Assembly (NCBI RefSeq): GCF_038025025.1
Contig: NW_027117344.1
Coordinates: 372,001 to 436,000 of the forward strand
DNA from: Phyllosticta citribraziliensis
Lineage: Eukaryota
DNA length: 64,000 nucleotides
Reading direction: 5' to 3'
Made by a program: the position numbers and the translations under genes. Under the pieces are notes generated by a model. That model did not search any database. It saw nothing but the letters and a program-made list of their open reading frames with translations, and was not told the DNA's origin. Positions 50,556-57,399 of the stretch are shown in pieces. How positions within the stretch are numbered: position 1 is the first letter of the stretch; every line of letters begins with the position of its first letter.

Positions 50556-52292
50556 GTTGGATGGAGGATTTGGGCGAAGAAAGAGGTTCGAGGGGTGAGG
50601 AGAAGGAGTGAAGATGTGGCGGGGTTTGTATTGAAGAGGATAGAGTTTTCGGCGGAGGAAAGGCGGTTTACCCCACTAGCGGCGTAGCCTCAATGGATCC
50701 GATGCCGCGTCGCCGCCCCCACGTGCGTCGGACTACCCGCCCTTTTGTTCAACTCAACACTTTTATCCGACCGACAGCAATTGTCTCGTTACCATTGTCT
50801 ATTCTTTTTGTTCGCTCTGCAACCAGATGGTACATCATCGAGTGTTGCAGTCATGCAGAACCCTCCACGCCGTCAACCGCCTGTCACTGATACTCTACCT
50901 ATCGTCCCAATTCGGCATTCATCTTCGGTGCATTAAAACGTTCCGACCTGCCTCTTTCGGCGAAATATTTGAGCCAGACATGCCCGATGGATTACTCGTG
51001 CAGCCAGGCTTGCCTCTTTGCAACTCCGCACCTTGTTGTCTTGAGCTGGGCTCCATCACCACTGCGTTGAGATGCTCTCTGGAAGACTGGTAGCTGCGTG
51101 AACCTGAACCACGACCCGGGCAAAGATCTAGACCCCGAGCAGATGTCATTGCCCGGTACGATAGCTACATACCCTTAGCTTTGCATCGACAACCGATTTT
51201 GTAATTTGGACCAACGCGAGTGATTACAAACCCCGAGCGAATTGACACCGCAAAATCCTCTTCGCGAATTGGATGCGTTCACGCGGGAAGGACTCGCCGT
51301 CGTATTATCCCACACGTGAAGACACTTCCCCTGCATCTCCATCGTGCAGCGCAGACATGTAGACAGCACCAACCACGATTCATGCACACAACAACATAAA
51401 CACCGATCCACCCATATGTATACTTGACAATCTATCTTTTGATCAATGAGCCGCTGAACCAAGGGAGAAAAAAGGACGAAAAGTGGCAAAGAGAAAGAGC
51501 CAATCGCTACCACCAATCCAAGCCCATGCTCGATTCAAGCACCACCTCTAGTCTCTGCTCGCCAAACCACTGCTTGCTAACAAACTCTTCTCCCATTCAT
51601 TGCTACAAGCCAAAGTCGCCCAAATTCAAATCAGTCCACAAGACACCGGACCGTGATCAGGGAAATTTCGATGGGCTCATAAGAACAAGGTGCCTCGCGC
51701 GAAGAGCCAGTCGTTTGAATCGGTTGATTTATTGATAAAGAAGCAGTTGGTGGTGGTCATTTAGACTACTACTTGTATGCCGGGCTGGTGTCATGCGCGC
51801 AAGAGCAAATGACGCTGCTATGCCAGAATACGCGTCCGCATCTTTCTCTGGTGCAGAGTGGCTTCCTCCCTGTGGACGGACGCGAGAATTGAGTGGGTGA
51901 GGGTGAACGGGTAGATGGGAAGCCGAGACAGCCAGGACAACGGACTGGCGCCAACAAGGACGGAAGGATTAAAGGATGAGGTGGAAGGAGAGGCTGCAAA
52001 GGGGATAAGAAAAGTCGCAAACTGGAGGTGTCACATTCCTCGAAGCCCGCTCGTCTTGCCTTCGTAGCTGGTGCTCACGTAGCCCAGCTCTTTTGAAGTG
52101 GCTGCTGCTGAAACCCTTGCAAAACATAAGAAATTACGGGTATGGTGCGGGATTAGTAGGGGTATCGGCCGGTGCCAAGTCTTCTCCTTGTTGGAGGCTG
52201 GGGAGGATGGTGCTGATTGGAGTCCCGAAGAATTGTTGTTTGTGGCAATTTGCTGCAAAGGGACGATTGTGTGGGGTGACGATGGATCAATG

Positions 52293-53712
52293 TCAGCGGA
52301 GGCCAATGACGCTCTGCATTAATGCGAGTCAGTACGACGAAACAGTCAAAATGCCCTTGCTGTGCGTCCCCGAGGCAACGAGCTGCATGAAGGGAAGAGC
52401 TGCTCGCTATACGAGAGCCGCAAGATGCATGCCAAGCTGAATAAACCACACCACTTACCATTTCCAACGTCCACACTCTGCGGATCCACACCTTTAGCTT
52501 GCCTTGGACACCTTCGACGTTGTCGAGTTCCACACCTTCCCACCAGCAGCGGCGGGCGGGTTTGCGCCAAAAAAGCAAAAGCTTCTGAGCCATGCCGACA
52601 GCGTTGCTGTTGGCCAGATCGTTGCCCTTGATATCGGTCCGTAGCCGCGCCAGCGCAATGCTGCAGATCACGGCCTTGTTTGGTTCGCCTGCTCTGTGAC
52701 CCCAACGATCGTCGTGATTGAAGCCACTGCCAACTAGTCAGCTATAATTTACAGTGACGTATTTGACCATGAATTCAAGAGTTTGCGACGGGGCGCAGTC
52801 AAAAAGCGGTGAGTTTAAGCTTACCCAGCTGTCAACATTTCAATCAGATGCTGCTCCGTGGTCCCCGGCTCTTCGCTCTTCCTCAAGCCCGAAAAGATGC
52901 CGTCTTGTTGCAAGAGGGCTTTGCCGGCGGCTCTCTTGACTTGCATCATTTCCTCGTGCTCGATGTCGCGTCTTGGGGGAATGGCGTAGAAGTCCAAGTC
53001 TTCCCGTAGAACAATGATGCCTGCTCGATCCTGAAGCATATCCCGCGCAGAGCCATGCATGGGTTCAATGGGCACCGCCTCGTGCGGTTGGTCTCCAACC
53101 AGGGTAGATGGTGAGGGCGGGGATGTGGGAATAGTCTGTGCGACATTGCGGAAGAAGTCGAGCATGTATTGAAGGGAGTTTGGATCGTACTGTGAGTGAT
53201 AATAAATGTCAGAAAGATATAGTGCTGGGGAAGATAGGCGGTTGCGGATAGCTTCTGCTTTGGATCCCGAACGTGCAAGGGAAAGTTGTGTTATGCAAGT
53301 AGCTCCTCCAAGGGCTTCCTCAGAGGTGTGTTTGGTGTTTGGGGTACTAACGTCTACTGGATACACGTCTCCGTCCGGATAGGCATTCATGTGTCCATCA
53401 GGTAGAAGGCCATTGGGGAAGAGCGACAAGAGAACAAACTCGGGGAGCGTCAAAAGCTCATCTCGGGACAGAGTGAAGCGCACTCCTCTGGCAAAGGCAG
53501 TTAGAATCTCAAGTACTGCAGGTGGAGGTCCAGCGCATACCGAAGCTCAAGTGTAATGTTTTCATCCGAGCCGCCTAGTGCAGAATGTCAGCGACGTGCA
53601 ATCGAGGAACGAGGTGGGACATATGTTTCTGACCTCCCAAAGCATTGATGGGGGGACCTCCTCCCTGAGACACCTGGGTGATGATGCTAGCGGGCCCTCC
53701 GGCAGTCGCCAT
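52293..53712 (-). CDS. WHI2: Whi2-like growth/stress regulator (BTB/POZ-like), 6 exons; AUG-initiated form shown
   Basis: LLTLPEFVLLSLFPNG, IIVLREDLDFY, EQHLIEML..GF, KLLLFWRKPARRCWW, KVWIRRVWTLEM-SVIGLR*; five GT..AG introns. Confidence 0.88.
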
Positions 53713-54866
53713 GATGTATTGAAACGATTCCAAGGGACTGGATCCTTCGCTGTAGGGTGGAGGGGGTTCTCCGTCGTCGATATCTTTGCTAGAGCTACCG
53801 TCCTTTGTGTCGTGAGGAAGCGCTGCCTTGGTCTCGGCAACGGCGGTAGCAGCAGCTGACGATGAAGGCTCCTCGAAGGGCGGAGCTGGGGCGAAAGCCG
53901 GAGGAGCTTCGTTGAGGCCCTCAGTGACGGTGGGTTTGTTTGGGTCTTCGTCCGAGTTGGCTTCGGGAGGGAAGTAGAGCGAGGAAAAGGGAGGTGGATC
54001 CAGAGAGTCGGCCGTTGTGAGCGTGCTGGACGGGGTAGTGGGGGCGTTCGTCGCCGTAGAGGGCTTGCTGTCGGCGCGCAGACAGCTGTCGTGCTGGTGA
54101 GAGTTCAAAGGAGTGACGGACACGGACGAACCGCTACGCGGGCGCGGTGTTTGCGACAAGGTGACTGACGGTGGTGCGGGCTCGAGCTGGGAGCCGTGGT
54201 GGAGTGGAGATGGGAGATTCGAGGGCCCCTGCACCAGCCTCTGGCCAAGTGGACAAGGGCGCGGGCCTTTCACGCAGCAGCAGCGGCGGCGGCAGCAGAG
54301 ACAGCAAAGAGGCGAGGGCTCGAGAGATCAGATAGGCGCGACAGGCGGAGCGGCACGCGAGCTGGGGCTGGACGATGGCATGAAGTCGAGATGGTTGGAC
54401 CGACGGGCTACAAGGGTGTGGAGTTGGGCGACGTGCTCAGGCGCCTTGGCGCGCCCGCGCCGCCGTCTTGGGCGGTAGGTAGCGACAGCCCATCACCACC
54501 TCACTACTGCCAGGCCCGTTTGACGTCGACCTTTTGGGTCGTTAGGGGGACATGATCTCAATGCCGTTTATATTCTTGACTCGTCGCTGCCACCCTGCGC
54601 GCCTCGCAAATGCGCATCAGCACCTCTGCCATTGGAAGCCGGCCCTGGCTGCTCGCGGACATTTGCAGCGACCCAAATCTCCGCCAACACATGCTGCCGG
54701 CTCCCAACACCCATTCGGATCACTACTGCCAGCAACCAAGCGCCGTCGAGGAACCGGTTGGCGCTCGACTTCCGACCTGTCTCACTGGGGATTCCACTGG
54801 CAAGCGCTCTATCCATCTTCCCTGCCAGGCCTACCAACACTAGACCCCAAATTCTATCCGATCACG

Positions 54867-57399
54867 CTAGTGACGTCGCACGACTCCCGCCTCGTTTGCC
54901 TGATCCGCAATCCGCTTCTTGTAGTCGTTGACTGTGCCCTCAAAGTGCTCAATCGTGCCATCGTCACACACCCACAACGACGTGCACACGTTTTGAAGCA
55001 TGGTAACGTCGTGGCTGACCATGAGCACGCCACCCTGAAACTCCCTGAGCGCCGTCGACAGCGCATCCATGGCTTCGATATCCAAGTGGTTGGACGGCTC
55101 GTCGAGGACGAGAATGTGTGGGTTCTGCAGTGACAGGCACGCGAACGCGACACGCGACTTTTGACCACCAGACAGTAGCCCCATCTTTTGCAAACCCGTC
55201 ATGCCCGTGATACCAAAGGCTCCCAGGTGCCGCCGGTACTCCTCATCCGTCTTACCGTGGAACTTTTGCGCCATGAATCCCACCGCACTCATGTTCAGGT
55301 CCAAGGCATCAACGTGGTGCTGAGCAAAGAAACCAATCCGCAGACGAGGATTGTTGGAAATGAGACCCTTTGTCGGATCCAGAGCTCCGATCAGAAGCTT
55401 CAAGGCCGTCGTCTTACCTGCTCCGTTGGGGCCGACGATGCCAATACGCGAGTCCAATTGGACATCAAGATCAACGTTGGTGAGCAGCGGCTTGTCCGGA
55501 GTGTAGCCAAACGTCACACCGCTCATCTGAATAATGGGAGGAGAAAGTTTCTCGACCTCAGGGAACTTGAAGTGGACTGTGTACTCGTCTTCGGGAGCCT
55601 GCAGAACAGGCATCTTCTCGAGCTTTTTGATTCTGGATTGAGCTTCGGAGGATTTGGCCGCGTTATATCTGAACTTGTCGATGAAGGCTGTGATTGGACA
55701 ATGGTTAGGAAGTCCTCTGAGCTTAATGGTAGGAGGGGTAATGGTGACGTACCTTGCAGGTGGGCCCTCTCGCCCATTTGCTTCTCGTACTCACGCTTGG
55801 CAGTCTTCCGCCTCTCTTCCTTGGTCGCGTAAAAGGAATCTGGGGAAAGAGGTTAGTCCCGGTTTCGAGAAAGTCTAGACAGGGGTTACTTACCGAAATT
55901 GGCACCCTTGTAGTAGTCCAGCCGCTCGGAATGCTGGTGGATAATGTCCGTTGCCACCTCATTCAGGAATGCCCTGTCGTGGGAAACCACCAGAATGGTA
56001 CTCGGGTACGTCTGTAGATAGTTTGATAAGAAGGTGATGGACGGCACGTCCAACATGTTGGACGGTTCTGGTAACGCGTCAGCCCGAGATCCGGTTACGT
56101 GACTCGCCCTGTGGCCACTTACCGTCGAGCAGGAGCAAGTCAGGCTCGCAGAAGAGAGCTCGCGCAAGCGCCAGCCTCATTCTCCAACCACCAGAAAAGG
56201 TTTTGGTAGCGTATGCCTGGCGTTCTTGAGAGAAGCCAAGACCGGCAAGGATACTGGCGGCGCGAGACTCGGCCTTGTCAGACTCCATCTCGGAAAGCTT
56301 GCCATGGATGTCGCTCAACGTGATGTCGAGCCCCTCCCGCTGGTGATCAAGCTTTTCCGCATCCGCAGAGGTGTCTGCCATGGTGGATCTCTTCTCCTCC
56401 AGCTCTGCCAGCTCGGCGCTGATTTTCTGCCCAAACGGTCAATACGAGCATGTGGAATGCCAAGCCCGAGGCACCTTCTTACCTCTTGCTCTTTGAGTAG
56501 ATGCTTTCTCCAGACATCGGCATCCAAGACGGATTGCAAAGCCGATGTATCATCACCGGCAATCTAGATGGTGTCAGCGAGGTTCCAGATGGTGCGAAGG
56601 CTCGATATACCTCTTGCTCGACGTGGAGAATCGAAATGTGCGTAGGGATGGCGACTTCTCTCTTGCTGAGCGCGCGGAGGAGCGTGGATTTACCAATACC
56701 GTTCTGACCAACCAGACCGTAGCGGCGGCCATATGCCAGGGTCAGGTTGGTGTCGGTGAGGATCCTCTGGCCGGCAATCGAAATGTCGATGCCGTCGACC
56801 TTGATGTCCTTGCTCTTTGCACTGGAATCAGAGCCAATCTGCAGGGGGTTGACCTTCATGAAGAACTCTTCGTAGGACTCTGTCTCGTTGGGCTCGTCAA
56901 GCAAGCGCGAGGCCTCGTACTCGACGAACTTCATCTCCTTCTTGTCCTGCTTGGCGCGGATCTTGCGTTCGGCCTTTTCAAGCTTCTTGCGGTCAACCTT
57001 GGACTCAATCTTGCGAGAGCCGGCGGACTCGAGGTCGACGCCGCCACCAGCCAGGCCCAGCGTCGACGACATGTTGCGCTGCGAGGCAACATGGATGGCT
57101 TGGTCGAGCTTCTTGGCCGAGGGGGCCATCTGGCGGCGGTCGCCATCAACACCGGAGTCGAGCTTCTCTACAAACTTGGCGACGAGGTTGCGGACGGACG
57201 TCTCATTCTGGGAAGACAGGTCACCTGACGCGGAAACGAGCAGAGCCGTGATGATGGCGGCGGCTTCAGCCAGCGGCGAGGGCGCGTTGGGATCAGCATC
57301 CGGGTTGAAGGAACCGGCGGCATGCTGGAGATAGCCCACGCTGTACTCGGACAGGACTGGGTCGATGTGAGGGATCTGACGGCGAATTTCAGCCTCCAT
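54867..57399 (-). CDS. GCN20: ABC-F ATPase Gcn20/ABCF3, multi-exon
   Basis: Two NBDs (GQNGIGKST, FSGGWRMR, LLLDEPSN; GPNGAGKT, LSGGQKSR, LDEPSNHLD); no TM domains; N-terminal extension. Confidence 0.92.

Follow-up and report, generated by a model that had tools for sequence, protein, structure and literature searches.

A conserved, AUG-free N-terminal extension points to two lengths of WHI2 in Phyllosticta citribraziliensis and related filamentous ascomycetes

A stretch of 64,000 nucleotides (nt) of the fungus Phyllosticta citribraziliensis (Dothideomycetes, order Botryosphaeriales), hereafter the window, covers positions 372,001 to 436,000 of contig NW_027117344.1 (RefSeq assembly GCF_038025025.1) and contains on its minus strand a gene whose close relatives are called Whi2, WHI2-like or 'general stress response protein Whi2' in public sources. 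Upstream of the first AUG of this WHI2 gene lies an N-terminal extension of 149 codons (53713..54159), which is free of ATGs in all frames and which, judged by its conservation and by the differences at its codon positions, is a real protein-coding sequence shared by several classes of the Pezizomycotina. The near-total exclusion of AUGs from this extension points to leaky scanning yielding two forms, and WHI2 would thus exist in two lengths, both here and, it seems, in the majority of filamentous ascomycetes.

WHI2 has been studied in Neurospora, in connection with cell fusion and clock output, and in plant pathogens, in connection with TOR signalling and mitophagy; to our knowledge, the published work on filamentous-fungal Whi2 describes the short form only. 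Should the long form exist, a third of WHI2 has gone unnoticed; this third would hold the most conserved linear motifs and the only PPxY motif of the protein, and a link to ubiquitin ligases would become testable.

The open frame upstream of the first AUG

An initial annotation, made by a model from the sequence letters, had suggested that WHI2 possesses a non-AUG-initiated extension of about 100 to 200 amino acids with a PPxY motif. Its description of the locus was confirmed at every coordinate by a direct scan: ATGs are present on the minus strand at 54381 and 53712, none is found in any frame across the 666 nt from 54378 to 53713, and the WHI2 frame is free of stop codons over 205 codons, from 54327 to 53713, immediately in front of the AUG at 53712. 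The nearest in-frame stop upstream is the TGA at 54330-54328, which closes an in-frame ORF (open reading frame) of 17 codons starting at ATG 54381 (54328..54381). The peptides that it had cited were found in the translation, 53766-53752 encodes PPPPY, and the three codons offered as starts, CTG 54237 (AGG CTG G), GTG 54273 and ACG 54015, are located where they had been placed.

Judged from the window alone, the absence of ATGs and the open frame are unusual to only a moderate degree, as 2000 dinucleotide-preserving shuffles gave a mean of 2.7 expected ATGs, a probability of 0.034 for finding no ATG and a probability of 0.02 for an open frame. The contrast within the gene itself is more pronounced: the 661 nt between the end of the longest RNA contig and the first AUG hold no ATG, compared to 17 in the next 897 nt of spliced coding sequence, and the extension contains no methionine codon, compared to ten in the 300 residues that follow. 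The decisive support for an ATG-free open extension is comparative evidence.

The extension on the mature transcript

RNA sequencing (RNA-seq) contigs from four public runs were aligned over positions 52000-55200. Five GT..AG introns on the minus strand (53574-53632, 53488-53540, 53190-53351, 52727-52824 and 52314-52458) are removed in all four runs, which therefore hold spliced RNA. The longest contig (2724 nt, 0 mismatches, 100% identical) is unspliced from 53633 to 54373, where it ends; the contig of a second run ends at 54361, and the further runs agree as far as each of them reaches. Because the spliced contig spans this interval without a joint, the mature WHI2 mRNA contains the extension in full as well as 214 nt in front of the proposed start codon, and no upstream AUG exon, which the initial annotation had named as a refutation, is spliced onto it.

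The two contig ends stem from two studies and hint only weakly at the true 5' end or transcription start, and no loose ends are listed at 54373 or 54361 among the RNA contigs of the four runs. Both ends lie downstream of ATG 54381, and the 17-codon ORF is probably located outside the mRNA or at its extreme 5' edge. Positions 54374-54579 are covered by no contig of the four runs, a gap that is usable neither as an argument for separate transcripts of WHI2 and the neighbouring ABC-F gene nor for a transcription start at 54373. From the end of the longest contig to the proposed start codon, the RNA contigs and the ATG scan define an AUG-free 5' leader (54160..54373). A CTG/CCG-rich simple repeat (ctgctgccgccgccgctgctgctgc) is found in this leader at 54269-54304; it was skipped as a repeat in the read alignment and encodes a Cys/Arg-rich, non-conserved portion of the open frame.

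Downstream of the extension, the WHI2 core coding sequence (52293..53712) consists of six exons, whose five joints are all seen in the four runs, and ends with the stop codon TGA at 52295-52293. The spliced frame encodes 449 amino acids from TTG 54159 and 300 amino acids from AUG 53712; the 449-residue product differs from the transcript-derived protein of a close relative by five mismatches over 449 residues. At its other end, the WHI2 contig runs 867 nt past position 52000, about 1.16 kb beyond the stop codon (about 51133-52293, minus strand), which reflects either a very long 3' untranslated region (UTR) or a convergent transcript that overlaps it in the assembly.

Conservation of the extension as protein

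A HMMER search of the extension-bearing ORF against 1.84 billion representative proteins yielded 194 matching proteins at E<=1e-3, 169 of which matched at E<=1e-10, and protein-level E-values between lineages went down to 1e-47. Many of the best matches start at query residues 53-56 and pass through the first methionine. The stop-to-stop ORF of 250 amino acids that holds the extension is 86-100% identical to named Phyllosticta proteins. The other named relatives listed belong to genera that we take to be members of the Dothideomycetes, Eurotiomycetes and Leotiomycetes, many lichen-forming genera among them, and named relatives are also present in many Sordariomycetes (Sordariales, Xylariales, Hypocreales, Glomerellales and Magnaporthales).

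Scanning metagenome contigs provided 80 loci with DNA sequence (L001-L080), including 61 unique ORFs that are not cut by contig ends; since the patterns used for retrieval include the PPxY block, these loci cannot serve to measure PPxY conservation. Upstream of the conserved methionine, the frame is open over 123-296 codons and lacks an in-frame methionine in 61 of 61 unique ORFs, and it has been preserved despite many insertions and deletions. Frame conservation and the absence of in-frame AUGs in relatives, which the initial annotation had named as checks, were thus found. Over 139 well-occupied columns of 36 lineage-cluster representatives, the mean pairwise differences at codon positions 1, 2 and 3 are 0.417, 0.346 and 0.628, respectively, and third positions are hence the most variable ones.

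Alternatively, the extension might not be translated, and its conservation could stem from an RNA or DNA element within a lengthy 5' UTR. The published Neurospora protein corresponds to the short form, and translation of the extension rests on sequence evidence, both of which would be compatible with such an element; however, the preserved open frame, the variable third positions and the E-values between lineages speak against it, and folding z-scores near the start are close to zero. We regard a non-coding leader as very improbable.

The proposed start codon of the long form

The proposed start codon of the long form is the UUG at 54157..54159 (context gtCACC TTG tcg), which was located by an alignment of the 36 cluster representatives from the metagenome loci. 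Of these, 28 carry TTG at the aligned position, six GTG, one CTG and one TTA, and in the locus with TTA (L055) a TTG is present at a second motif. Position -3 is occupied by a purine throughout (A in 28 and G in eight representatives), and C is found at position -4 in 32 and at position -2 in 27 of the 36. Information content does not exceed 0.2 bit upstream of position -12, except for the single columns -45 and -31, and is followed by the conserved string ccACCnnCACc TTG tcg. Protein conservation begins at the same place with a first block (VT-L-SQTPRPRSGSSVSVTPL; 54100..54165), whose motif x-T-L-S-x-T-R-D-x-S-D-G-S-S-V recurs across lineages. In five of 35 representatives an in-frame stop lies just 2-6 codons upstream of the start, and the start-anchored nucleotide alignment revealed no AG acceptor at the conserved 5' boundary. 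An interchange of UUG, GUG and CUG that excludes synonymous codons other than near-cognates, combined with a purine at -3 and with conservation that sets in abruptly, is the classic signature of a non-AUG start, and CAMM in front of the start codon is the fungal consensus context.

The choice of codon varies with lineage. The leucine codon of the first motif is TTG wherever this motif aligns; Eurotiales-like loci have GTG at the aligned position and Capnodiales-like loci GTG, CTG or TTG. In Chaetothyriales-like loci, which have a second motif TT(A/E)LS, the corresponding codon is TTG in seven, CTG in one and TTC in two cases, and one of their ORFs opens after the first motif only. As a control, the other leucine codons of the extension are TTG in 12% and CTG in 7% (6.9%) of cases, and three other conserved leucine positions never use TTG or CTG. 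The low share of CTG and the lack of both codons at these three positions hint at an avoidance of near-cognate codons between the two starts that goes beyond AUG. The motif rules assigned no start in eight of the 61 unique loci (L004, L007, L016, L062, L063, L074, L078 and L079), which were left out of the counts of ATG exclusion and of start context and folding. L060, whose aligned codon is GTG although the rule gave CTA, was kept in the ATG-exclusion count and left out of the context, folding and information-content analyses, and L055 was left out of the information-content analysis.

With regard to the initial annotation, an extension of 149 amino acids that is conserved as protein, present on the mRNA and begun by a conserved near-cognate codon agrees with what had been suggested; none of the start codons named there is the conserved one, however, and TTG 54159 was absent from its list. 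The codon at ACG 54015 changes freely and synonymously between relatives (ACA in four, ACC in two, ACG in two and GCA in one), and thereby provides a negative control; in a close relative, an in-frame TAG is found downstream of GTG 54273, and the sequence that holds CTG 54237 lacks conservation beyond the genus.

The CTG (54235..54237; AGG CTG G) nevertheless deserves consideration as a possible extra, genus-specific start, since the ORF of the close relative opens just upstream of it. In this species, the long form might be produced mainly from CUG 54237 or GUG 54234, giving about 475 amino acids, with the UUG being merely ancestral. The CUG shares the WHI2 frame, its context offers A at -3 and G at +4, and scanning ribosomes would encounter it first; the close relative's ORF opens five codons upstream of it, and no residue differs between the window and this relative over the 25 codons V32-S56. 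However, outside the genus the residues in front of the UUG show no conservation, nucleotide conservation sets in only at -12 of the UUG, other lineages have in-frame stops 2-6 codons upstream of the UUG, and the identity within the genus may reflect low divergence alone. Predominant initiation at CUG or GUG is therefore judged unlikely. The close relative, which is represented by an RNA-seq run labelled as plant metagenome, carries a 15-nt insertion at 54247/54248 that has the look of a near-tandem repeat; this insertion creates the in-frame TAG five codons upstream of CTG 54237.

Initiation further upstream, at AUG 54381, would require readthrough of the UGA at 54330-54328 into the WHI2 frame, a route which the initial annotation had offered as an alternative. 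The 17-codon ORF is indeed in frame with WHI2; however, the transcript contigs of two studies end downstream of its AUG, which is a weak hint only, the 56 codons from the UGA to the UUG are not conserved and contain an additional in-frame TAG in the close relative, and upstream ATGs in other lineages lie at variable distances (34-441 nt) and in variable frames. Readthrough appears even less probable than a non-coding leader.

Probable leaky scanning and two proposed WHI2 proteins

A contrast to expectation is also seen in the stretch between the near-cognate start and the conserved AUG, which comprises 129-175 codons in the unique loci with an assigned start. In 50 of these 53 loci it contains no ATG in any frame, and the remaining three, which are related to each other, have one out-of-frame ATG each. 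Among 37 clusters, a single ATG was observed between the starts compared to 54 expected from synonymous-codon shuffling, and none of 300 shuffles gave fewer than 40. Ribosomes that elongate from the UUG are not affected by out-of-frame AUGs, yet these are excluded as well, which argues for selection on ribosomes that scan past the UUG. With AUGs almost entirely kept out of about 450 nt in 37 lineage clusters, this stretch bears an exceptionally clear evolutionary signature of leaky scanning. The first AUG itself (53710..53712; tacATC ATG G), the proposed start of the 300-residue form, encodes a near-invariant methionine and is preceded by TACGTN or TACATC and followed by G across the loci.

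According to the model that fits these observations best in our view, the WHI2 mRNA is decoded via leaky scanning into two proteins. Ribosomes would scan the AUG-free leader of about 214 nt, and a fraction of them would initiate at UUG 54159 (CACC-UUG-U) and produce the long form, whose first 149 residues are without predicted structure and carry short conserved motifs, an invariant PPxY among them. Those ribosomes that skip the UUG would scan another 447 AUG-free nt and initiate at AUG 53712 (AUC-AUG-G), thereby producing the 300-residue core. The long form is expected to be the minor product, and the PPxY motif might recruit an Rsp5/HulA-type ubiquitin ligase to the long form only. We assign a probability of roughly 80% to this two-protein model with UUG 54159 as the start of the long form.

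The two isoforms suggested by the initial annotation are thus in line with an extension that is AUG-free in all frames across lineages, with a first AUG that is conserved in a strong context, and with the size of the published protein. Neurospora WHI-2 is described as a protein of 297 amino acids (available text of PMC6987382), and an HA (haemagglutinin)-tagged version expressed from its own promoter ran near the predicted 32.2 kDa (available text of PMC4184795), a size which fits an abundant short form. Phosphosites S103-S111 of WHI2/AN10545 are mentioned for the Aspergillus nidulans phosphoproteome (main text of PMC8399174, as far as accessible), and the accessible part of its supplement holds no AN10545 entry; by count, these sites fit the numbering of the short form and are uninformative on the extension.

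Several points weigh against the two-protein model or against the UUG as its upstream start. UUG is usually a weak near-cognate start codon. Conservation is unbroken through the first AUG, which itself lies inside a conserved block, and the first methionine could hence be conserved as a residue and not as a start. The in-frame CUG 54237 precedes the UUG in good context, and some initiation may occur there. At the second motif, two Chaetothyriales-like loci (L074 and L079) have TTC, which encodes Phe, and no near-cognate start could be assigned to them; they are among the eight of 61 unique loci that remain without a start under the motif rules. A downstream hairpin that would boost initiation was not significant in the 80 nt from the start of 15 loci, with z-scores from -1.4 to +2.7. 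Finally, the accessible literature mentions only the Neurospora product of about 32 kDa, and the long form may be scarce, conditional or absent in that fungus.

A 4-bp stem of the type ACGG/GCGG..CCGT recurs across many lineages about 26 nt downstream of the start (about 54122-54134 in the window; also in L001, L021, L049, L070 and L080). It overlaps the codons for D-G-S-S-V, and the fold z-scores are not significant.

Conserved motifs and the PPxY motif

The conserved blocks of the extension read PPPFSSLYFP, PAFAPAPPF, AETKAALPxDTK and DDGEPPPPYSEGSSPLxSFTYVMA. Protein alignments place the PPPFSSLYFP motif at 53968..53997, where P111, P112, P113, F114 and S115 are almost invariant in 36 sequences; among 30 full-length proteins, P80 and P81 do not vary. 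The AETKAALPHDTK motif (53803..53838) is characterized by an invariant D173 and by T166, K167 and L170, which are almost invariant. The PPxY motif of the window (PPPPY; 53752..53766) lies within DDGEPPPPYSEG; E187, P188, P189 and Y192 are invariant in the 36 sequences, which had been found without any pattern, and P157, P158, P159 and Y161 of the PPxY block are invariant in the 30 full-length proteins. The WHI2 copy of the window has this single PPxY motif, and copies from Sordariomycetes and Leotiomycetes (including L070, L077 and L080, and proteins P0271-P0386) carry a second one, SPPP[QRK]YP, upstream of PPPFSS.

An AlphaFold2 model of a relative of 474 amino acids, which is of low confidence (mean predicted local distance difference test (pLDDT) score of 52), contains no predicted secondary structure in residues 1-200, followed by the start of a strand-strand-helix-helix arrangement at residues 206-234. 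A Pfam search returned no families and a sequence search of the PDB no matches. Binding of PPxY motifs to the WW domains of Rsp5/NEDD4-type ligases is well established, and the PPxY motif of the extension is a candidate for such a binding site in WHI2. For Neurospora WHI-2, BTB/POZ domains were reported by InterProScan (available text of PMC6987382); its 297 residues and the 300 residues of the short form were compared by length. In Neurospora, Magnaporthe and yeast, Whi2 is described as part of a complex with a Psr1/CSP-6-type phosphatase (available text of PMC5800702 and PMC8295519).

Relation to known non-AUG systems

In yeast, ALA1 and HFA1 give rise to dual isoforms from the upstream non-AUG starts ACG and AUU, respectively. 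The proposed decoding of WHI2 resembles these cases, since ribosomes that leak past a weak near-cognate codon and initiate at an AUG further downstream would produce two proteoforms with different N-termini. However, the extensions of ALA1 and HFA1 are mitochondrial presequences, whereas that of WHI2 consists of 149 amino acids without predicted structure, with a PPxY and short motifs and shows no sign of a targeting peptide.

The closest parallel in filamentous fungi is cpc-1 of Neurospora crassa, in which N-terminal extensions are produced from conserved near-cognate codons (Ivanov et al. 2017; available text of PMC5487733). As in cpc-1, the extension of WHI2 is found throughout the Pezizomycotina, lacks an in-frame AUG, is conserved as protein, begins at near-cognate codons in good context with a purine at -3 and belongs to a regulator connected with nutrient stress (PMC5487733). 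In contrast, cpc-1 possesses several near-cognate codons interleaved with upstream ORFs, whereas WHI2 has one dominant codon (UUG, GUG or CUG) and no conserved upstream ORF; furthermore, initiation in cpc-1 was demonstrated in extracts and by profiling, whereas the start of WHI2 is predicted here from sequence. WHI2 is not mentioned in the available text of the cpc-1 paper (PMC5487733).

The human BTB protein KCTD11, which has been grouped with Whi2, offers a further parallel: its annotated AUG form is short, and its long form starts upstream at an AUU (available text of the KCTD review PMC6566181). The two cases differ in that the KCTD11 extension comprises 39 amino acids and completes the BTB domain, whereas the extension of WHI2 lies entirely upstream of the core and holds separate motifs (PMC6566181). 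Published Whi2 proteins, such as N. crassa NCU10518 (297 amino acids) and Magnaporthe oryzae MGG_11241, match the 300-residue product in length and apparently in domain content, and the available text of these accounts (PMC6987382, PMC4184795, PMC5800702 and PMC8295519) mentions neither a PPxY motif nor a longer form, nor initiation at a non-AUG codon further upstream. Like the PY-motif partners of Rsp5/NEDD4, for instance the arrestin-related adaptors and Sna3, WHI2 has an invariant PPxY in a region without predicted structure; in contrast to them, it has neither an arrestin fold nor a membrane anchor (available text of PMC9282857 and PMC2171029).

A literature search found no paper that links Whi2 to non-AUG initiation, an N-terminal extension or leaky scanning. 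The mechanism as such is already known from cpc-1, ALA1, HFA1 and KCTD11; WHI2 would add a case to these that stands out by how widely it occurs, how clear its signature is and how strongly it affects annotation. We know of no evidence that would relate the non-AUG events of KCTD11 and WHI2 to each other.

It is tempting to speculate that the UUG-initiated long form is a regulated proteoform, which is made when start-codon stringency is relaxed, for example under nutrient or translational stress, and whose PPxY recruits Rsp5/HulA to the Whi2-Psr1 phosphatase complex; we consider this extension of the two-protein model possible but rather doubtful. If it were true, the state of the initiation machinery would be coupled to TORC1 and stress signalling across the Pezizomycotina.

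Fused gene models in public annotation

WHI2 is located on the minus strand directly downstream of an ABC-F gene, whose TAG stop codon (54867..54869) lies within an unspliced ABC-F contig (54580-55200) and which is fused to WHI2 in many public models. Such models suggest another source of a start codon, namely an upstream AUG that is reached by splicing or by a longer transcript, either as an ABC-F-WHI2 fusion or from another exon. Among the matches listed, 59 of 120 relatives of the window ORF are ABC-F-WHI2 models of about 1150-1320 amino acids, this partner being found in the Dothideomycetes, and 30 of 120 relatives listed for a Sordariomycete-like copy (L077) are fused to a G-patch gene. 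However, the WHI2 contig is unspliced through the modelled acceptor (53633-54373), the ABC-F contig likewise passes the ABC-F stop and the modelled donor unspliced, and the two genes are connected by no joint. Furthermore, the modelled junctions are not the same in different Phyllosticta species, the fusion partner depends on the class, an AG acceptor is missing at the conserved boundary, and 11 of the 120 models listed for the Sordariomycete-like copy are flagged 'partial', as is typical of predictors that are forced to find an ATG. A genuine spliced or fused AUG is thus about as improbable as a non-coding leader.

Because the junctions differ even within Phyllosticta and the contigs run unspliced through the modelled donor and acceptor, the fusions are best interpreted as artefacts of gene prediction, which has to supply an ATG; the WHI2 ORF lacks one, which leads to chimeric or 'partial' models. 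A spliced or fused AUG, readthrough and a non-coding leader are hence disfavoured by the RNA contigs and the comparative pattern, and the genus-specific CUG does not belong to the alternatives disfavoured in this way. Placing the start at the conserved CACC-TTG would be a simple rule to correct WHI2 models. Wrong names are also found on WHI2 fragments, such as 'ABC-F 3' and 'dipeptidyl-peptidase III'. In the window, the region covered by fused models corresponds to 54867-55790 together with 53713-54159, and the proteins concerned are P0002-P0077 and P0272-P0384.

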